Shown in pieces: positions 27,130-36,072 of a stretch of DNA of 38,371 nt. Below the pieces are notes generated by a model. That model was not told the origin of the DNA and did no database searches. It saw nothing but the letters and a program-made list of their open reading frames with translations. Made by a program: the position numbers and the translations under genes. Position 1 is the stretch's first letter. Every line of letters begins with the position of its first letter. Source of the DNA: a virus (Duplodnaviria; Heunggongvirae; Uroviricota; Caudoviricetes); IMG/VR virus record IMGVR_UViG_2563366865_000004, positions 1 through 38,371 of that record, one strand, 5' to 3'.

Positions 27130-28073
27130 GCAATCCCCCTGTCTGCAAACTTCCCTTCCCGAACTCCCGTTAACGAGTCTTCCCTCAGCAGGTAATCAAA
27201 ATCAGCCGTCCAGCCCGTGTCGTTGTCTCCGAAGTAAAACGGCTTGGCCTGATGCACAAACGCCCTGACATACGCTCTGAAACCGTCCACATTTGGCGTT
27301 TTCAGTTGCGGGATGATTTTCTTCAGGCGGCGTTTGCGTTTCTCGTTGACCGCAACAGCGTGTGGCAGTCTGTCACCGACTTCGGTGTTGTAGGCGTTCA
27401 GGAAGGATTCGTAGTCGATTCGTTCTGCCTTGCGACGTTCAGGTTTAACCTGCCCATCGCCTCCCCCATTGGGGGGTAGGGGGGTATTATTTATATTCTT
27501 GTTAATACCTTCTTGTTCATGATGTGCGGTTGTTTGTGCGGCTTCATGTGCGCTTTCATGTGTGGCATGTACGCTGAAAGCCGCGCCATTACTGGCTTCA
27601 TCATGTGCGGCATCATGTGCGGTTGTTTGTGCGGCTTCATGTGCGGGTGAATTGTCCATTTTTTGAGCGTATTCATGGTAATTTGTGATGGTGATCACAC
27701 GCCCTTTTTGCTTCTCTCCATCAATGGAAATCATCCCCTCTTTCACAAAAACCTGAAGCATCCGCTCAACCTGATCACGGCTTGCTGGCTTGCCATGCCT
27801 GTCGCATAACTGAAGACCTAAATCAGCTGCTGTCACAACCAGTTGACCGGGTTGCAGATGCCATTCATGACCTTTGAAATTCGCTTTGTATGGCTTTCTG
27901 GCGGCATTCAGGAGAAGGTTTTCCCACAGGGTGCGAAGATAAACATCTTTCGCCCATGACTGTTTCAGAATGCTCCGGTACAACGGAATGTAACCAGTTT
28001 TCTGGTTCTCCATCCTGTTGCTCCTGCGCTCGTGTGCGGCGCTGAAATCGTAGATTTTTGCTGTATTGCTCAT
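27126..28073 (-). CDS. Replication initiator (lambda O / P22 gp18-like), 315 aa
   Basis: N-terminus [10 protein letters not shown] resembles lambda O; internal His/Ala-rich repeats encoded by the ori iterons; directly upstream of helicase. Confidence 0.8.
27517..27650. repeat. Candidate origin of replication: iteron-like direct repeats inside the initiator gene, with adjacent AT-rich stretch (27481-27512)
   Basis: Perfect 30-nt direct repeat TGTGCGGTTGTTTGTGCGGCTTCATGTGCG at 27523-27552 and 27617-27646; about seven copies of TGTGCGG. Confidence 0.55.
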
Positions 28074-28075
28074 AA

Positions 28076-28348
28076 CTACCTGCCTTGACGAAAGACCTTA
28101 AGAACATCGTTAAACTGACTTACGGATATGTCTTCTTTGAGAAGCTTTTCCAGAAATGCGTTTGGAATGAACGTATATCCCTCCTCTTTTGGTAGAGACG
28201 GGAGCAACGCCCTCGCCTCAGCCTTCAGAAACTCAGTTCTGGCAACTTTCACAAAAGAGATTTGAGTTCTTTCATCAATGGAACGAAGGAAGCGCAAACG
28301 CTTAGCTTCTTTGTGTGTATCAGGTGGATTAAAGCCTTTGTTTCGCAT
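28076..28348 (-). CDS. Hypothetical protein, 90 aa, inserted between cII and the initiator gene
   Basis: Internal Met with GAGGT RBS chosen; the longer supplied ORF would overlap cII in another frame. Confidence 0.5.
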   Translation of the reverse strand: MRNKGFNPPDTHKEAKRLRFLRSIDERTQISFVKVARTEFLKAEARALLPSLPKEEGYTFIPNAFLEKLLKEDISVSQFNDVLKVFRQGR

Positions 28349-28370
28349 ATAATTACCTCGTTGGATGTTG

Positions 28371-28664
28371 TTAAAATTCCATTTGTATTTGATCAGAACG
28401 CTCGGTTGCCGCCGGGCGTTTTTTATTGGTGAGAATCGAAGCAACTTGTCGTGCCAATCGAGCCATGTCGTCGTCGACGACACCCCATTCAAGAACAGCA
28501 AGCAGCATTGAGAACTTTGGAATCCAGTCCCTCTTCCACCTGCTGATCTGCGACTTATCAACTCCCACAGCTTCCGCTGTCTTCTCAGTTCCAAGCATTG
28601 CGATTTTGTTAAGCAACGCACTCTCGATTCGTAGAGCCTCGTTGCGTTTGTTTGCACGAACCAT
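28371..28664 (-). CDS. cII: CII transcriptional activator, 97 aa, lambda-type
   Basis: MVRANKRNEALRIESALLNKIAMLGTEKTAEAVGVDKSQISRWKRDWIPKFSMLL matches lambda CII; upstream TTGTTAAGGAAATACTTACATATG identical to lambda as remembered. Confidence 0.9.
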   Translation of the reverse strand: MVRANKRNEALRIESALLNKIAMLGTEKTAEAVGVDKSQISRWKRDWIPKFSMLLAVLEWGVVDDDMARLARQVASILTNKKRPAATERSDQIQMEF

Positions 28665-28723
28665 ATGTAAGTATTTCCTTAACAAATAAGAAGTTATGCG
28701 CATCAACTTATGCGCGTTGTATT

Positions 28724-28766
28724 CCCGCATTTCGGCGGGAATGAGGACCATGACTGTTAAAGAGCA
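28724..28766 (-). promoter_or_regulatory. nutR (boxA plus boxB)
   Basis: Minus strand boxA TGCTCTTTAACA then boxB hairpin CCCGCCGAAATGCGGG between cro and cII. Confidence 0.6.
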
Positions 28767-28772
28767 ATTTGC

Positions 28773-28958
28773 TTATGCCGCTTTGCGGTAAGCGCTTTCT
28801 TGATACTTCAGGGCGCCAGCTGTAACGACTTCCAGTCGATAGGCGTCTTTCTCTGGGATGACTTCCTTCCACTGAGAGACTGCTGCGTCGCTAATGCCTA
28901 ACGCTTTAGCTACAGCACGCTGGGTTCCGAAGTGGTCGATAACATCTTTCTTGTACAT
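28773..28958 (-). CDS. cro: Cro repressor, 61 aa, P22-type
   Basis: MYKKDVIDHFGTQRAVAKALGISDAAVSQWKEVIPEKDAYRLE matches P22 Cro as remembered. Confidence 0.9.
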   Translation of the reverse strand: MYKKDVIDHFGTQRAVAKALGISDAAVSQWKEVIPEKDAYRLEVVTAGALKYQESAYRKAA

Positions 28959-29038
28959 AGACTCGCTCCGAAATTAAAGAACACTTAAATTGTCCACTAA
29001 AGGAATCTTAAGTCAAGTTTATTTAAGATGTCTTAACT
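28959..29038. promoter_or_regulatory. OR operator / PR-PRM region
   Basis: Divergent cro and c2 starts; partial dyads containing TTAAG half-sites, e.g. ATTTAAGATGTCTTAACT abutting the c2 ATG (leaderless PRM transcript implied). Confidence 0.6.
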
Positions 29039-29689
29039 ATGAAAACTCAATTGATGGGAGAGCGCATTCGCGCTCGGAGAAAAGAACTCAAGATCAGGCA
29101 GGCCGCACTTGGAAAGATGGTCGGCGTGTCTAATGTTGCCATATCTCAGTGGGAACGCTCTGAGACAGAGCCAAATGGAGAGAATCTTCTCGCCCTGGCT
29201 AATGCGTTGAAGTGTTCCCCTGACTATCTGATGAAAGGAGAGGAAAGTCTTTCAAACATTGCCTATCACAGTAGGCATGATCCAAGAGGGTCATACCCTC
29301 TGATTAGCTGGGTGAGCGCAGGATGCTGGATGGAAGCTGTAGAACCATATCATAAGCGTGCAATAGATAACTGGTACGATACAACCGTAGACTGTTCAGA
29401 CGATTCGTTTTGGTTGGACGTGAAGGGAGACTCAATGACGGCTCCGGCCGGTCTCAGTATCCCTGAAGGAATGATAATACTCGTCGATCCTGAAGTAGAG
29501 CCGCGTAACGGGAAACTGGTAGTTGCAAAGCTCGAAGGAGAAAACGAGGCAACTTTCAAGAAGTTAGTTATTGATGCAGGCAGGAAGTTTCTAAAACCAC
29601 TTAACCCACAATATCCGATGATCGAGATCAACGGGAACTGCAAAATCATCGGCGTAGTTGTCGATGCAAAACTAGCAAACCTTCCATAA
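29039..29689 (+). CDS. c2: C2 repressor (LexA-like autocleaving CI-family), 216 aa, P22-type
   Basis: MKTQLMGERIRARRKELKIRQAALGKMVGVSNVAISQWERSETEPNGENLLAL and C-terminal peptidase domain match P22 C2. Confidence 0.95.
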   Translation: MKTQLMGERIRARRKELKIRQAALGKMVGVSNVAISQWERSETEPNGENLLALANALKCSPDYLMKGEESLSNIAYHSRHDPRGSYPLISWVSAGCWMEAVEPYHKRAIDNWYDTTVDCSDDSFWLDVKGDSMTAPAGLSIPEGMIILVDPEVEPRNGKLVVAKLEGENEATFKKLVIDAGRKFLKPLNPQYPMIEINGNCKIIGVVVDAKLANLP

Positions 29690-29712
29690 GGGGGCATTCG
29701 CCCCTTTTTTTA
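29688..29712 (+). terminator. Rho-independent terminator after c2
   Basis: GGGGC-ATTC-GCCCC followed by TTTTTTTT. Confidence 0.85.
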
Positions 29713-29853
29713 TTTCCTTTAAAAATCAAAGCCAAACTTAAGTTACGAAAGAAAATTTAAGTTTTCTTCAAAAATACTCTTGACCATTAATTAAAGAGAT
29801 CTTAAATTTAAGCCATCAGCAGGACGCTGGTAGCCAAACGGAACAGATTGGCA

Positions 29854-29894
29854 GGCTCTTTAACATTGATGGAATTGTCCCGCCGAAATGCGGG
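29854..29894 (+). promoter_or_regulatory. nutL (boxA plus boxB), downstream of the presumed PL/OL region (about 29720-29800)
   Basis: GGCTCTTTAACA then the same boxB hairpin CCCGCCGAAATGCGGG as nutR. Confidence 0.6.
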
Positions 29895-30037
29895 AACCAA
29901 AGAGTAGTTGGCTTTGGGATTGGATGAATGCGCAGGCTGATGCGCGCAGGAGAGCTTCGGGAGAACAAGGTGCCTGTAAATAAGCCGGAGTTCAGCACCG
30001 GCCATCCAATCGCCAAAGTCAATCATCGGAGGTCAAC

Positions 30038-30343
30038 ATGGCAGTAGTCATTACATATCTGGCTGACGATAACGCCAGAAATCGCCGCAGAGCACGCAGA
30101 CAGGCTCAACGTGAACAGGCAATGCAAGAGCAGCGACTGGCGCGAAAAATTGCGCTAAAGCTCTCTGGTTGCGTCAGAGCAGATAAAGCAGCATCACTCG
30201 GAAGCCTTCGCTGCAAGAAGGCAGAAGAAGTCGAGCGTAAACAGAACCGTATTTACTACCGCAAGCCACGCAGTGAAATGGGTGTGACTTGCTCAGGCCG
30301 CCAGAAACAACGCGGAAAATCAATTCCAGCTTATTACGATTGA
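30038..30343 (+). CDS. N-like antiterminator (P22 gp24-like), 101 aa
   Basis: N-terminal arginine-rich motif NARNRRRARRQAQREQ; first gene after nutL. Confidence 0.75.
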   Translation: MAVVITYLADDNARNRRRARRQAQREQAMQEQRLARKIALKLSGCVRADKAASLGSLRCKKAEEVERKQNRIYYRKPRSEMGVTCSGRQKQRGKSIPAYYD

Positions 30344-30351
30344 GGTGAGCC

Positions 30352-30489
30352 ATGCTCAAGAAAGTCAAACGCCGACTTTACAAAGAAGGTAGATATTCAT
30401 GCCATTTGCCAAAATGCGACACAGCAAAATGGAGTGTCGATGATTGGTGTAACTGGATAGATAGATACGGAACTTGGTGGGATAAATAA
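30352..30489 (+). CDS. Small Cys/His/Trp-rich hypothetical protein, 45 aa (not in ORF track)
   Basis: ATG preceded by GAGGTGAG RBS; translation MLKKVKRRLYKEGRYSCHLPKCDTAKWSVDDWCNWIDRYGTWWDK. Confidence 0.4.
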   Translation: MLKKVKRRLYKEGRYSCHLPKCDTAKWSVDDWCNWIDRYGTWWDK

Positions 30490-30543
30490 CAGGTAACTTA
30501 AGCGGATTTATTTTCGCAGCAAACCACTTATTTGAGGTGAGAT

Positions 30544-30807
30544 ATGGACGAGAAAATTAAATCATTGAAGCCAGGAATTGTTATCAGAGACATAAGTGGT
30601 TATTACGATACAGAGACATATGATATTTTATATGTGCATGCAGATGGAAAATGTCAGTATTCGAACGACATTTTTAATAATAAAGGCGATGCCGAAATTG
30701 CTGCCACCACAGTTAATAAAGAGCTCGTAGCTAACGAGTCGTGGGATTATTTTATGCCATCATCCACTTCTATGAACTGGAAAGTGGTTTTGTACATTCC
30801 ATCATAA
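30544..30807 (+). CDS. AT-rich hypothetical moron protein, 87 aa
   Basis: Strong GAGGTGAG RBS, markedly lower GC than neighbours, followed by its own terminator. Confidence 0.55.
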   Translation: MDEKIKSLKPGIVIRDISGYYDTETYDILYVHADGKCQYSNDIFNNKGDAEIAATTVNKELVANESWDYFMPSSTSMNWKVVLYIPS

Positions 30808-30848
30808 TTGTAGCTGCCGTTCAAAAATGAAAGTAAATCTAACATCAC

Positions 30849-30872
30849 AGGCCGCATAGTCGGCCTTCTTTT
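30849..30872 (+). terminator. Rho-independent terminator after the 87-aa moron
   Basis: AGGCCG-CATAGT-CGGCCT followed by TCTTTT. Confidence 0.6.
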
Positions 30873-30991
30873 GGCATAAACAACAGAATAAACACTGCAC
30901 TGTGTATTCATTCCAACGAGTGAATACACTGAGCAATGTCGCTCGTAACTAAACAGGAGCCGACTTGTTCTGATTATTGGAAATCTTCTTT

Positions 30992-31018
30992 GCCCTCCAG
31001 TGTGAGGGCAATTTTTTT
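30992..31018 (+). terminator. Rho-independent terminator (tL-like) preceding the coiled-coil gene
   Basis: GCCCTC-CAGTGT-GAGGGC followed by AATTTTTTT. Confidence 0.65.
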
Positions 31019-31030
31019 GATGGAGGATAT

Positions 31031-31999
31031 ATGAGTGAAGTAACAGATTTAGTTGTTATTGAAAAAGCAAATGCAATGACTGTATTTCAGTCTGCCGACC
31101 AGATTGAAGAAATCCTTCAAAAGGTTGAACGTGAAGTTATGTCCTTTGTGCCTGATATCACAACGGCAAAGGGCAGAAAGGAGATCGCTTCTCTGGCGTA
31201 TAAAGTTGCGCAGACGAAAACATATCTCGATGGTCTTGGCAAAGACCTTGTTGCTGAACTGAAGGAAATTCCAAAGCTAATTGATGCTAACCGCAAGACA
31301 GTGCGTGATCGCCTTGATGAGCTGAAAGCCAAGGCACGCCAGCCTCTTACTGATTATGAGGAAGAACAGGCGCGGATTAAAGCCGAAGAAGAAGCTAAGG
31401 CAGCAGCTGAAGCTCTCGCAAAGCAAATTGAGTCTGACCATGAAATAGCTATTTTGATGGATCGCGAATTTGACCGCCAAAGAGAAGAGGCAAGACTCAA
31501 AGCGGAGCAGGAAAAGCGAGAGCATGAAGAACGCTTAAAAAGAGAAGCTGAAGAGAAAGCCAGAGCAGAAGCCGAAGCAAAGGCAAAAGCCGAAATTGAA
31601 GCAGCAGCAAGGCGAGAAGCAGAAGCTAAGGCCGCAGCGGAACGTGCAGAGCGTGAACGCATTGAAGCCGAGCAACGAGCACTGCGCGAAGCAAAAGAGG
31701 CAGCAGAACGAGCTGAAAGAGAAAAGCAGGCGGCAATTGAAGCAGAACGCAGAAAAGCACAGGAGGAGGCTGAACGAATCCGGCGCGAGGCTGAAGCAAA
31801 AGAGCAAGCCAGAATAGCAGAAGAAAAAAGAATCAAGGACGAAGAAGAGCGTAGAGCAAAGGATAAAGCTCACCGAAAAGAAGTAAATAACAAAATACTT
31901 GCTGACCTTATCAAGGTTGGCGCATCAGAAGATGTTGCTAAAAATATCATAACAGCCATCGTAAAAGGCGAAGTATTCGCAACAAAAATAACCTACTAA
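31031..31999 (+). CDS. Highly charged coiled-coil protein with Glu/Ala/Lys/Arg-rich central repeats, 322 aa
   Basis: GGAGG RBS before ATG at 31031; residues about 120-290 low-complexity EAEAKAKAE / REAEEK type. Confidence 0.6.
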   Translation: MSEVTDLVVIEKANAMTVFQSADQIEEILQKVEREVMSFVPDITTAKGRKEIASLAYKVAQTKTYLDGLGKDLVAELKEIPKLIDANRKTVRDRLDELKAKARQPLTDYEEEQARIKAEEEAKAAAEALAKQIESDHEIAILMDREFDRQREEARLKAEQEKREHEERLKREAEEKARAEAEAKAKAEIEAAARREAEAKAAAERAERERIEAEQRALREAKEAAERAEREKQAAIEAERRKAQEEAERIRREAEAKEQARIAEEKRIKDEEERRAKDKAHRKEVNNKILADLIKVGASEDVAKNIITAIVKGEVFATKITY

Positions 32000-32022
32000 T
32001 AAAACCAACATAAGGAACCACC

Positions 32023-32154
32023 CATGATTTACGCAATCGCGGGAGGCGCTCGCATGGGTGCCTTCCAATTAAATGAATCTTTACTTGAACGAATCACCCG
32101 TAAATTACGTGACGGATGGAAAAGAGTTGAGGTCTTATTATGCGCAATGAAATA
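32023..32154 (+). CDS. cIII: CIII-like protein, 43 aa (not in ORF track)
   Basis: MIYAIAGGARMGAFQLNESLLERITRKLRDGWKR matches the lambda CIII core (ESLLERITRKLRDGWKR). Confidence 0.7.
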
Positions 32155-32292
32155 GCCATTAATCACCAGATGCTTCGTGCGGCACAAAACAAAGCAGTAA
32201 TAGCCAGATTTATTGGTGATTCAAAAATGTGGCTTGAAGCAAATAAAGCGATGAAATCAGCTATCAACCTTCCGTGGTATCGCAGGAAATGA
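32140..32292 (+). CDS. Kil-like small protein, 50 aa (not in ORF track)
   Basis: ARFIGDSKMWLEANKAM resembles lambda Kil ATFIGDEKMFREA segment as remembered; GAGGT RBS; overlaps cIII-like end. Confidence 0.5.
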   Translation: MRNEIAINHQMLRAAQNKAVIARFIGDSKMWLEANKAMKSAINLPWYRRK

Positions 32293-32373
32293 GTTTTACA
32301 GATAACTGGTCAGACGAAGAATTCATTCGTCAGATGAACAAAATGCTCAATCAGCACAAAGAACAGGAGAAAG

Positions 32374-32685
32374 ATGATGATTCTGACTCTGAATGATAAG
32401 CGTGAAATATCGCAAATAATCGCAAGTTTTACTGATGAAGATTACGAACGAATCAACAGTGAAGTTGATCGTCTCTGCAAACGTTGCGACCCAATAAGCG
32501 AAATGCTTCGCTCATATAAACCAGATGAACACACTAAGGACGCTATCGACTGGCTGGAAGATGATGACTGTAACTATCAGGAAAAAGCCGCTGAATGGTT
32601 CTGGGATGCAATAACCGAAAGAGTTAAGGCTGAATATGCCTTCGCAATATTTAAACGCAGACACATTTTTGGAGAAGCAGCATGA
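32374..32685 (+). CDS. Hypothetical acidic protein, 103 aa
   Basis: AGGAG RBS; stop overlaps recT start. Confidence 0.55.
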   Translation: MMILTLNDKREISQIIASFTDEDYERINSEVDRLCKRCDPISEMLRSYKPDEHTKDAIDWLEDDDCNYQEKAAEWFWDAITERVKAEYAFAIFKRRHIFGEAA

Positions 32686-33593
32686 GCAATATCGTTGAAT
32701 TCGTTAAACAGCAAGAGCAGTTATTCTGCGGAGCATTGACTGAACAGACGGTGACATGGGCTAAGGAAAGCCAGTTTGCAATTCAGTATTTCCAGAAAAA
32801 CGATTACCTGGCTAAAACAGCACTGGCAAATCCAACCAGCGCACAGAACGCCATCATCAATGTTGCGGCGATCGGCATCACCTTAAACCCTGCAAGCAAA
32901 CTGGCTTATCTGGTTCCGCGCGATGGCATGGTTTGCCTTGATATCAGCTATATGGGATTGCTCCATATTGCAATGGAGTCTGGTGTTATCTCATGGGGTC
33001 AGGCAAAACTTGTTCATGCTAACGATACCTATGAGTCAAACGGGCTTGATAAAGCACCAACCCATAAATACAACGCCTTCGGTGATCGTGGTGATATCGT
33101 TGGCGTTTACTGCACAGTTAAGACGCCGGCAGGTGATTATCTAACGGAAGAGATGAGTCTGGCTGAAATTGAGGCTGTAAGGAAAACAAGCAAGGCAGCA
33201 TTCAGCGATAAAGGACCATGGGTAAATCACTGGAATGAGATGGCGCGAAAGACGGTCGTAAAGCGTGCAAGCAAGTATTGGCCTAAGGCATCACGTCTTG
33301 ATAGTGCTATTCACGTACTAAACGAAGAAGAAGGTGTATGGACTGAACCAGTTATGCCGCACAAATCAGAGGAAGATATCCGCGAAGATGAACGGAAACG
33401 CCAGCAGGAAATAACGGATAAAGCACAACTTCTTTGTGATGAAATGGCTCAGGCAGAAAACATGGATGATTTGAAGCGATATTTTGCAGAAGCATATCGC
33501 CTGACATCTGGAATGAAATTGCAGCAGAACATACAAGCCATTTACATAGAATGCAAAGCGAAACTGGAGGTTGCCAGTGAGCAAACTGTATGA
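32682..33593 (+). CDS. recT: RecT-family single-strand annealing recombinase, 303 aa
   Basis: Central region AIINVAAIGITLNPASKLAYLVPRDG typical of RecT. Confidence 0.85.
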   Translation: MSNIVEFVKQQEQLFCGALTEQTVTWAKESQFAIQYFQKNDYLAKTALANPTSAQNAIINVAAIGITLNPASKLAYLVPRDGMVCLDISYMGLLHIAMESGVISWGQAKLVHANDTYESNGLDKAPTHKYNAFGDRGDIVGVYCTVKTPAGDYLTEEMSLAEIEAVRKTSKAAFSDKGPWVNHWNEMARKTVVKRASKYWPKASRLDSAIHVLNEEEGVWTEPVMPHKSEEDIREDERKRQQEITDKAQLLCDEMAQAENMDDLKRYFAEAYRLTSGMKLQQNIQAIYIECKAKLEVASEQTV

Positions 33594-34059
33594 AATAGCT
33601 AATGAATACGCAAAATTGATGGATTCAGATTTAGAACCAGAGATGATTGCTGACACAATAGAAGGCATGGAAGGAGAATTTACCGATAAAATAGAGCAAC
33701 TTCTTTCCGTCATTAAAAATGAATCTGGTTATGCTGAACGCCTCAAGGAAGAGGCAAAGTCGCTGAATGAGCGAGCCGCAGTAATTCAAAATAAGATTGA
33801 CAGCATCAAATCATATATAGCGTCATCGCTTGAAATGGTTGGCAAGAAAAAGATTCGAGCAGGTATTCACCAGGTAACAATCCGCAAACCGTCAGAAACT
33901 GTAGAAATCATCGACTCAAGCGCCCTTCCTCCTGAATACGTTGAGTTCGAAACGACAATTAAAGCCGACAAGTTGGCAATCAAGCACCAACTAAAAGCAG
34001 GAATAAATATCCCCGGCGCTCAACTCAAGGTTGGGAAACCTTCACTTCTTATCAAATAA
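33577..34059 (+). CDS. Recombination-module accessory protein (Gp157-like), 160 aa, GTG start
   Basis: GGAGG RBS 6 nt before GTG; position right after recT; family assignment from memory only. Confidence 0.5.
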   Translation: MSKLYEIANEYAKLMDSDLEPEMIADTIEGMEGEFTDKIEQLLSVIKNESGYAERLKEEAKSLNERAAVIQNKIDSIKSYIASSLEMVGKKKIRAGIHQVTIRKPSETVEIIDSSALPPEYVEFETTIKADKLAIKHQLKAGINIPGAQLKVGKPSLLIK

Positions 34060-34070
34060 CGGTATCGACT

Positions 34071-34385
34071 ATGAAAAAGACTCCATGGGAGAAATGGGAA
34101 GTCGATTTCTTGCGCGAAGTAGCGGCGACAATGCCAGTTCAAGTTATCGCTGAAAAACTGGAAAGGACTGAAAAAGCAGTAATGGCAAAAGCAACAAGGA
34201 TTGGCGCTGACATTGTTAGCCGACTTCGTGGAAGACGCTGGACAAGAGCCGAAGTATCACTTTTCGGTAAGTTCTCCGCAGAAGAAATAGCAATTGCAAC
34301 CTGCCGCTCAATTTATTCAGTAAGAGCTATGCGATACAAGCTAAAAAAACTCGATGAAGAAAGAGCAGGCATACGAATAAATTAA
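34071..34385 (+). CDS. Hypothetical protein, 104 aa
   Basis: ORF in early-left operon. Confidence 0.5.
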   Translation: MKKTPWEKWEVDFLREVAATMPVQVIAEKLERTEKAVMAKATRIGADIVSRLRGRRWTRAEVSLFGKFSAEEIAIATCRSIYSVRAMRYKLKKLDEERAGIRIN

Positions 34386-34401
34386 CATGGAGTAATTAAC
34401 A

Positions 34402-34683
34402 ATGAAGCTAAACATCGACCTCGGAAAATACGTTATTACCGGAACCAAACACGACCTGATTCTTAGTGAAAGAGGAATTATCAAAGAAGGCGAGAATGCA
34501 GGGAAAGAAACACTAAGTCGTATCGGTTATTACAGCAAGTTTGAGCATCTGGTTAAAGAGTTATGCAACCGTGAAATCCTGTTATCTCAGGCGCAGACGC
34601 TACAGGATATTCAGCAGCATATCGAAACTTTAGGTATGTCACTTAGCATGGCTATTGACCAGTTAGTGGAGAGTAAATCATGA
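34402..34683 (+). CDS. Hypothetical protein, 93 aa
   Basis: ORF in early-left operon. Confidence 0.5.
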
Positions 34684-34844
34684 GAGGACTTGCATACAAT
34701 CCCGGCATTCTTCCGGCAGAAATGATTATTCGCCAACGAGTAAAGCCAATGCCATCGAGAGAGGAATTGCTTAAGAGAAATTCTTTTCCTTCAGTAAATC
34801 AAAACAAATATCTGAATGCGATGTGGCGGAGTGGGAAGAAATGA
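34680..34844 (+). CDS. Small hypothetical protein, 54 aa (not in ORF track)
   Basis: ATGA overlaps at both ends suggesting translational coupling. Confidence 0.35.
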
Positions 34845-35416
34845 AACAAATGTCACTAATTGAGATGGATGGATTTCTGAAAGGTAAATGCATCCCACGA
34901 GATTTAAAGGTTAACGAAACAAACGCTGAATATCTGGTGCGTAAGTTCGGTGAGCTTGAATCAAAACTGGAAACGGCGTTGCGGGAGTGTCGTTCTGCTG
35001 GAATCACGATTGATAACCTTGAGGCCAAGTGCGCGGCGCTGGCAGCGGAGAGTGCGGGGCTAAAGGCGATATGTGATGACCGTCGCAGGTTCATCATGAA
35101 TGGGGTGCAGATGGGTTATATCAAGGTGCCAGCAGCGGAAACAGATCCAGACCTTGAGACAATTCGCATTGCTATATCACCACAAAAGCCCATTCCAGCC
35201 ACTGATGCTTTCCTGTCTGAAGTGCGGGCGCAGGGGGTGGATGCTGCTATAGAAGCTGCAAAAAATCTGGTGGTCCAAGAATATGAGTATAAGGATTTCA
35301 AAGCGGCGCAGAGTGATTGCTGTATGCACCCTGGTTCAGACCTGGTAGGGAAGGTTGAAATGACTGAGTGGTTAGTTGACTTTGCTGCCCAGCTTCGCAA
35401 AGGAGGCAACCAGTGA
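34841..35416 (+). CDS. Hypothetical protein, 191 aa
   Basis: ATG start chosen over the upstream GTG of the supplied ORF. Confidence 0.5.
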
Positions 35417-36072
35417 GCGAAATTAATTACCAGGCACTACGTGAGGCGGCAGAACGTGCAACTCCAGCAATGGAACGCCTGTTAATGTTGCCAGTTGATG
35501 ATGATCTGATAAGCGAACAGGAACTTAAAGATAGCGGTGTTGATATTGATGCCCTCAACGCCTTCAAATTTCTGGCCGGACCAGAAACCGTGCTGGCGCT
35601 ACTGGATGAACGGGAAAGAAACCAGCAATACATAAAACGCCGCGATCAGGAGAACGAGGATATTGCGCTAACGGTAGGGAAACTGCTAATCGAAAACGGC
35701 CGGCTTGTTGCCGATACGCTACGCCACTTAGCTGATAACGAAATCGACTCTGATTATTTTGCTATCACCTCAACGAATGAGAACGGTACTGAAATTGATC
35801 ATGAGATGGCTATTACCGATTACGCACTGCAAGCTGCCGGAACTGTAGACGAATTGGTTGCGGCGCTGGAATCCGCAGAGAAGCGCATAGCAGAACTGGA
35901 AGCGCGGGAAATACTGCTCCCGGAACGTAGCAGTATGCTTCATCGAACAGATTTTCACGATGATTACCAAACGGTAATGGCATACAAAGTTTCTGAAGTC
36001 ATCGCTGCAATCCGCGCCGCTGGCATTCGCATCAAAGGAGACGCAGGAGAACAAAACGATGAAAAACCGTAA
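35413..36072 (+). CDS. Ead/Ea22-like early protein, 219 aa
   Basis: N-terminus [18 protein letters not shown] resembles Ea22-like prophage proteins as remembered. Confidence 0.6.
   Translation: MSEINYQALREAAERATPAMERLLMLPVDDDLISEQELKDSGVDIDALNAFKFLAGPETVLALLDERERNQQYIKRRDQENEDIALTVGKLLIENGRLVADTLRHLADNEIDSDYFAITSTNENGTEIDHEMAITDYALQAAGTVDELVAALESAEKRIAELEAREILLPERSSMLHRTDFHDDYQTVMAYKVSEVIAAIRAAGIRIKGDAGEQNDEKP

Follow-up and report, generated by a model that had tools for sequence, protein, structure and literature searches.

The gene described here, an early-left gene of 322 codons, lies in a 38,371-nucleotide (nt) stretch of Caudoviricetes DNA (IMG/VR record IMGVR_UViG_2563366865_000004, positions 1 to 38,371), which is referred to in full as the window. 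Judged by its sequence, the protein is a member of a catalogued, functionally uncharacterised family, that of Sf6 gp33, D3 Orf53 and PHROG 1376 (hereafter the gp33 family). Across diverse prophages the gp33-family gene usually comes first in strand-annealing recombination modules, and any of four recombinase families may stand behind it. The protein is predicted to be a dumbbell, with an N-terminal head of about 110-125 amino acids (aa), a C-terminal head of about 42 aa and a long helix between the two. We propose that it may serve as a spacer or tether, an accessory adaptor of phage recombination or recombination-dependent replication whose partners are general, and we give this reading a probability of about 0.45.

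Gene order beside recombination genes

Gene order was analysed in a diverse set of 80 prophage loci from species-representative genomes, in which open reading frames (ORFs) were called and the neighbours of the gp33-family gene were scanned with Pfam. The first downstream same-strand ORF of at least 100 aa was available at 73 loci, the second downstream at 59 and the first upstream, which served as the control, at 67. Among the 73 first downstream ORFs the Pfam matches were ERF (17), RecT (15), Rad52_Rad22 (4), the Sak4-like AAA_24 (3), YqaJ (4) and DUF3799 (3). The next large ORF thus encodes a strand-annealing recombinase (Erf, RecT, Rad52 or Sak4) at no fewer than 39 of 73 loci, and a recombination exonuclease at 7 of 73. 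PHROG labels and clustering agree with Pfam, and bring the annealing proteins up to about 45 of 73. The second downstream position is occupied by YqaJ (20 of 59), SSB (8, with a further 2 SSB_1), DUF3799 (3) and RecT (1). Recombination genes occur as the upstream neighbour in only about 6 of 67 cases (RecT 4, YqaJ 1, DUF3799 1), the remainder being miscellaneous. In the annotated phages D3 and JBD44 the order is gp33-family gene, Erf, exonuclease; in the annotated Vibrio phage phiV039C it is Erf, SSB, gp33-family gene.

An earlier note on this DNA, made by a reader of the letters alone, had placed the gene in the early-left region just upstream of cIII, kil and recT, and had suggested from this a host-takeover or recombination-associated role. 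PHROG and Pfam confirm these neighbours. Beyond the position in the window, the conserved gene order in 73 diverse prophages supports a recombination-associated role, although the role itself is something we infer. The conserved leading position provides a concrete lead on an unexplained component of phage recombination, with a possible use in recombineering.

A second, close set consisted of 80 loci in which the N-terminal domain (N domain) is 61-100% identical to that of the window protein, with partners counted within ±5 kb. The modules found were Erf with Abc2, with or without SSB (43 loci), RecT with Gp157 (3, including the window) and RecT with lambda Gam (2). The protein of Shigella phage Sf6 gene 33, which is identical to the window protein at 321 of 322 residues, is paired with Erf, and the window protein with RecT. 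Covariation of the C-terminal domain (C domain) with the recombinase would point to direct binding; when N-domain similarity was controlled for, the association of C-domain similarity with recombinase type was weak and not significant (p = 0.06).

The gp33 family and its three-part build

The gene itself is not new, having been in GenBank since the Sf6 genome, where gene 33 is described only as 'similar to phage D3 gene Orf53'. The earlier note had been unable to assign a family. One can now be given, since residues 1-322 of the window protein align to positions 1-362 of the phrog_1376 profile (E = 4.8e-110), although the function of this family is listed in PHROG as unknown. The homologues of Pseudomonas phage D3 and of JBD44 are about 52-55% identical in the N domain and have the same three-part build. 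Near-identical copies are carried by phages mEp043, mEp234, mEp213, HK633, HK544, IME10, Sf101 and CUS-3, by several Stx1a phages and by others. About one complete E. coli genome in ten (530 of 5,426) carries the gene.

When 1.84 billion representatives were searched with an N-domain profile (131 positions, covering the first ~130 residues), 5,719 cluster representatives matched at E <= 0.001, and 1,584 of them reached E <= 1e-30. The best 150 matches are nearly all proteins of 300-390 aa with the domain at the N-terminus. Nearly all family members share the N-terminal helical domain, a centre rich in E, A, K, R and Q, and a C-terminal domain of ~42 aa ending in ..I.Y, the full motif that closes the protein being D..H+..iN......L...G..e.Ak.vv.aIa.G.ip.v.I.Y. 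Invariant or near-invariant residues (R49, S54, K63, K71, P105, E110 and about 20 others) are concentrated in the VPDxTTxKGR loop and in the first part of the long helix. The hosts of family members are alpha-, beta- and gammaproteobacteria; a few metagenome bins bear other labels. Database matches to the N domain alone come mostly from proteins marked 'partial', which end in, or just after, this domain at the ends of contigs. Short-read assemblies often seem to break in the gene, presumably owing to low-complexity repeats or to sequence shared among prophages.

Searches for relatives outside the family gave little. Neither the window protein nor 64 diverse relatives had a usable match in Pfam, even at E <= 10, and NCBIfam likewise gave no usable match for the window protein and relatives. 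A sequence search of the PDB found no relative, the matches to Zuotin and apolipoprotein A-I reflecting composition only, and a BFVD search returned family members only. Foldseek comparison of two AlphaFold2 (AF2) models with the PDB gave nothing at E < 1. The best Foldseek match was of the C domain to RuvA domain III (E = 2.1), which is no more than a weak lead, as hhalign against E. coli RuvA showed no relation. Relatives of odd length were checked for informative domain fusions and none was found; the SusD and PMSR fragments seen there look like chimeric contigs. Ksap1, the Avs2 trigger, is an unrelated protein of 74 aa. Deletions reported from experimental evolution of Sf6 lie in the nin region, not at gene 33. 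The family is very large (more than 5,700 representatives), has neither a Pfam model nor a solved structure, and commonly carries a wrong name.

That name is TolA. Copies in E. coli are labelled 'cell envelope biogenesis protein TolA', 'coiled-coil domain-containing protein' or 'hypothetical protein', and 'TolA', which is used routinely in RefSeq and in phage records, is a misnomer for the family. The window protein scores 9.0 bits with the NCBIfam model tolA_full (TIGR02794), for which the cut-off is 59.45. It lacks a hydrophobic N-terminus and a membrane anchor, and no membrane-spanning segment was found in it (the 19-residue Kyte-Doolittle mean peaks at 1.03, at residue 293). Pfam detects no TolA C-terminal domain III in the window protein or the 64 relatives, and the genomic context is a phage early-left operon, not tolQRAB-pal. 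The likeness to TolA is limited to the composition of the central helix, which resembles TolA domain II. Phage genes annotated 'TolA' have been discussed as envelope or auxiliary metabolic genes (PMC10520572; PMC11125564), one of them being reported as an auxiliary metabolic gene (PMC10520572). If these genes do belong to the gp33 family, the interpretation would rest on a low-complexity mislabel.

Four residues, E (62), A (60), K (36) and R (34), make up 192 of the 322 residues of the window protein (60%). Windows of 15 residues with at least 80% E, A, K, R or Q span residues 108-285, and both flanks are of ordinary composition, in keeping with the earlier note's description of a 322-aa protein with a charged helical centre of roughly 170 residues. 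The N domain is made up of two short helices and the VPDxTTxKGR loop, and takes in the start of the long helix. Its isoelectric point (pI) is 6.3 and its net charge 0, the centre is mildly acidic (pI 5.2), the C domain is mildly basic, and the whole protein has a pI of 5.5. The AF2 model of the window protein, built with an alignment of 64 sequences, has a mean predicted local distance difference test (pLDDT) score of 86.6. It places helices at residues 12-20 and 22-37, a loop at 38-45, long helices at 46-172 and 176-295, and a helix at 300-311 followed by the C-terminal tail. The break at 173-175 has a pLDDT below 50. In the model of a natural 210-aa member (P0271, pLDDT 91.5) a single continuous helix, residues 47-183, runs between the same end pieces. 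An antiparallel coiled-coil hairpin turning at residues 173-175 was set aside, because the break is of low confidence, P0271 has one helix and there is no heptad signal.

The earlier note had called the centre a coiled coil, and here it has to be corrected. In the segment 150-280, hydrophobic residues amount to 7%, charged ones to 61% and alanine to 27%. Hydrophobic power at the 3.5-residue period gives z = 0.0 relative to shuffled sequences, as against z = 31 for the tropomyosin control, and by this measure the centre is not a canonical heptad coiled coil. Opposite charges are instead paired at i/i+4 with a frequency of 0.41, compared with 0.19 +/- 0.03 in shuffles (z = 7.4). The same pattern is seen in 56 family members, for which the median z is -0.6 for heptads and 4.3 for i/i+4 charge pairs; only 4% have a heptad z above 2. 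By its charge pattern and its predicted continuous helix, the centre is like an ER/K single alpha-helix. ER/K single alpha-helices act as stiff spacers, examples being those of myosin VI and X and of caldesmon, and engineered ER/K linkers. We know of no report that places a single alpha-helix within a phage recombination module.

Early-left operon, length variation and selection

The frame in the ORF list (30977..31999, +) begins with a TTG and would encode 340 aa, and the ATG at 31031 gives 322 aa. This ATG is the credible start because the TTG extension would begin within a terminator-like hairpin. The stem of the hairpin (30990-31011) has 8 pairs, of which 5 are GC, and is followed by seven T's; this strong hairpin with its T-run lies 12 nt upstream of the ribosome-binding site of the gene. 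Sf6 gene 33 is similarly situated behind the terminator tL2A and the mosaic 'boundary sequence' bsq4, directly before homologues of cIII and kil. With a terminator just upstream, the gp33-family gene and the cIII, kil and recombination genes should depend on N antitermination, and the sequence suggests that the gene should be delayed-early along with them. The features are collected in Table 1.

Table 1. Features of the gp33-family gene and of its surroundings, with positions in the window
Feature	Position	Strand	Remarks
cI	29039-29689		Neighbour gene
N-like antiterminator	30038-30343		Neighbour gene
Intrinsic-terminator-like hairpin, TTGCCCTC-CAGTGT-GAGGGCAA, then T7	30990..31018	+	Counterpart of Sf6 tL2A
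Shine-Dalgarno sequence GGAGG	31022..31026	+	4 nt upstream of ATG 31031; read from sequence
gp33-family gene, 322 codons and stop	31031..31999	+	Homologue of Sf6 gene 33, D3 Orf53 and JBD44 gp65; PHROG 1376
N-terminal helical domain, residues 1 to about 125	31031..31405	+	From alignments, AF2, dN/dS and profile search
E/A/K/R-rich central helix (predicted), residues 108-285	31352..31885	+	From composition, charge pattern, AF2 and in-frame indels
Imperfect direct repeat of 37 nt, two copies 66 nt apart	31622..31724	+	Encode EAKAAAERAERE and EAKEAAERAERE
C-terminal domain, residues 281-322 (HRKEVNNKILADLIKVGASEDVAKNIITAIVKGEVFATKITY)	31871..31996	+	Helix, turn, helix, terminal strand
cIII	32024-32155	+	phrog_550; between the gp33-family gene and the recombination genes
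kil	32140-32292	+	phrog_2055; between the gp33-family gene and the recombination genes
RecT	32682-33593	+	PF03837, E = 2.9e-32; recombination module
Gp157 / Mu Gam-like protein	33571-34059	+	PF05565, E = 2.5e-38; recombination module

Several further observations concern the neighbourhood. The gene for Gp157, or 'Mu Gam-like end protection' protein, overlaps the end of the RecT gene by 23 nt, and the window holds both the charged-helix protein and this Gam-like candidate. The related LF82 prophage Gally has been described with the trio recT-gam-abc1 (PMC9928086). Two small ORFs of unknown function are conserved in phages, one of 103 aa (32374-32685, +, phrog_3486) that ends at the start of RecT and one of 87 aa (30544-30807, +, phrog_33140) that lies between N and the terminator. 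Two antisense ORFs rich in S, A, F, L and C, of 160 aa (31354-31836, -) and 112 aa (31535-31873, -), overlap the charged-helix region; these look like compositional by-products of the run of GAA, GCN and AAR codons, the reverse complement of which is free of stops. An Rfam scan of positions 28000-36000 found no RNA families.

The coding DNA had been described as internally repetitive and therefore prone to length variation. Repeats are indeed present; they are weak and imperfect, Tandem Repeats Finder giving low-scoring arrays only, and the units found are one of 33 nt in six copies at 67-76% identity and one of 37 nt in three copies at 70%. The proneness to length variation is borne out. Copies with an identity of at least 98% in the aligned part are 245, 275, 290, 296, 300, 304, 306, 309, 322 or 333 aa long, and all the aligned length differences among them are in-frame insertions or deletions (indels) inside the centre. 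A further variant of 321 aa (P0084, 99% identical) is listed and was left out of the alignment. The 22-aa deletion of the 300-aa variants (e.g. HK633; alignment of P0087) falls between the two copies of the 37-nt repeat, and the 333-aa form has an 11-aa duplication. In the family at large, total length among the representatives kept ranges from 176 to 445 aa. Spacers measured in 56 members range from 85 to 242 residues (median 178), and those of two natural short members, read by eye, are roughly 25 and 55 residues. Taken from these alignments, spacer length appears to drift through in-frame gain and loss of imperfect repeats, which makes the family a natural example of an ER/K-type helical spacer that varies in length between near-identical alleles.

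The end domains differ in selection. The ratio of nonsynonymous to synonymous substitution rates (dN/dS) is about 0.05 for the N domain and 0.04-0.12 for the C domain where this can be aligned. In some relatives the two domains have separate histories: in the IMG/VR relatives L058 and L060 (gene starting at about 5001) identity to the window protein is 87% in the N domain and 29-33% in the C domain, a disparity from which exchange of the C domain as a module follows.

The gene is intact in most of the 80 close loci, and about 10 carry a nonsense mutation or a frameshift. Of the disrupted copies, L048-L051 have a stop at codon 20 and L006 and L018 have 1-nt deletions; this is ordinary prophage decay. 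In CUS-3 (CP000711, 35058-36024) a match of 967 nt is annotated as two ORFs, and split copies of this type probably explain why PHROG places the N part (17211) and the C part (21365) in different families. As the earlier note had treated it, this is a real gene; its homologues are not in general degenerate pseudogenes.

Proposed function and known systems

The proposal of a recombination adaptor with general partners draws on gene order together with the predicted build. The partners would be recombinase-general because a near-identical protein occurs with both Erf and RecT modules and the C domain does not clearly track the recombinase. On this proposal, the gp33-family protein would be cytoplasmic and delayed-early, and would aid recombination-dependent replication or the repair of phage DNA. 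Each head might bind a different partner, and the charged helix would set the distance between the two heads. Candidate partners are, for instance, a DNA intermediate and host factors of general DNA metabolism, in preference to a specific recombinase. Across temperate phages of alpha-, beta- and gammaproteobacteria the module runs from the gp33-family gene to a strand-annealing protein and then to an exonuclease or SSB, with Erf, RecT/Bet, Rad52 and Sak4 alike as the recombinase.

Several points weigh against the proposal. At about 30% of the diverse loci, the next large ORF is not a recognised recombination gene. In lambdoid phages the gp33-family gene forms a mosaic unit of its own, marked off by a 'boundary sequence', with cIII and kil before the recombination genes, and it is not counted among the module members in a 2025 survey that covered 325 lambdoid Rec modules (PMC12315714). 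Gene order alone cannot tell a protein that works in recombination from one that is co-expressed with recombination genes. The sequence and fold searches gave no link to any characterised recombination protein, and a literature search found no functional study of any family member. The N domain is not basic, and charge therefore gives no hint of direct DNA binding.

A bolder form of the proposal is that the family constitutes an unrecognised core accessory class of Proteobacterial single-strand-annealing systems, a molecular ruler interchangeable among Erf, RecT, Rad52 and Sak4 modules. In such a ruler the two heads would bridge two components, perhaps a DNA intermediate on one side and a replisome or repair factor of the host on the other. 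We regard this form as doubtful. If true, it would mean that adding a gp33-family protein could raise the efficiency of recombineering in non-model bacteria, and that the family corresponds, on the Gram-negative side, to the DUF1351 slot of Gram-positive phages, which is just as unexplained.

Two other explanations are unlikely, and about equally so. The gp33-family protein could be an analogue of the Gam proteins of lambda and Mu, protecting linear phage DNA ends or inhibiting a host nuclease (RecBCD, SbcCD) on behalf of the annealing protein and exonuclease. Its gene does stand in the slot of lambda gam (gam-bet-exo), including at loci with a Bet-like recombinase, and within about 4 kb of the gene in the 80 diverse loci there is one lambda Gam homologue, one Abc2 and no Gp157. 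Phages of Firmicutes have Gam, Gp157, DUF2483 or DUF1351 at this position upstream of their annealing gene (PMC8093625). However, in the close set the gene co-occurs with the anti-RecBCD protein Abc2 at 45 of 80 loci, with lambda Gam at 3 and with Gp157 at 3, the window among them. A sequence relation to the window's Gp157 is also lacking (hhalign probability 0.6%), Foldseek detected no Ku- or Gam-like fold in the PDB, and with the pI values given above the protein is not a strongly acidic DNA mimic.

Alternatively, as the earlier note had allowed, this might be a host-takeover or counter-defence accessory gene riding in the early operon, its link with recombination being one of shared timing and transcription; we hold this, too, to be improbable. 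The lambdoid copy is an independent mosaic unit between N/ral and cIII, in a region rich in accessory genes (ral, sieB, ea10), and the same or a near-identical protein is found with unrelated recombination modules. C domains are swapped between close relatives, and such swapping is typical of arms-race proteins. Against this, the oriented adjacency to recombination genes persists in alpha-, beta- and gammaproteobacteria where cIII, kil and the lambdoid architecture are missing, and selection on the N domain is strongly purifying rather than diversifying.

A TolA-like envelope protein or a classical coiled-coil structural protein, as the database names and the A/E/K-rich helix would suggest, is very improbable for a protein that falls below the TolA cut-off and has no anchor, TolA C-terminal domain, tol context or heptads. 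A decaying or untranslated low-complexity ORF, for which the disrupted close copies, the two ORFs of CUS-3 and the split PHROG families might speak, is less credible still in view of thousands of intact homologues with conserved end domains, the low dN/dS, length variants that are all in frame and a good ribosome-binding site.

Among known systems, the Gam and Gp157 proteins are like the gp33-family protein in being helical and in taking first place in a recombinase-exonuclease operon. The gp33-family protein differs in being much longer, with a charged spacer, and in co-occurring with Gp157 itself in the window and with Abc2 or Gam elsewhere. DUF1351 proteins (PF07083) share with it the slot directly upstream of a strand-annealing gene, a similar size and a helical N-terminal part. 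In Oenococcus phage phi9805 (L169:3413-4339), for example, a DUF1351 protein of 308 aa is encoded in the order DUF1351, Sak4, SSB. These proteins nevertheless lack the long E/A/K/R helix and the ..I.Y C-terminus. The DUF1351 Pfam model does not match the window protein at E <= 0.1 and is not recurrent among 64 diverse members at E <= 10. An hhalign comparison of a 100-sequence family alignment with a shallow alignment of 6 DUF1351 proteins gave a probability of 0.4% (E = 0.17) over 17 columns; an alignment of this depth could miss very distant homology. The sole aligned stretch pairs AHRKEVNN, at the start of the family's C domain, with AHQKIVND, which is invariant in DUF1351, and is a curiosity, not evidence.

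The central helix is closest to the ER/K single alpha-helices, with which it shares high charge, few hydrophobic residues, i/i+4 enrichment, the lack of heptads and a long continuous predicted helix; it is more alanine-rich than the classical ER/K helices. The nearest known system as a whole is Sf6 gp33, which is the same protein as that of the window, in the same position behind tL2A and with no substantial difference.

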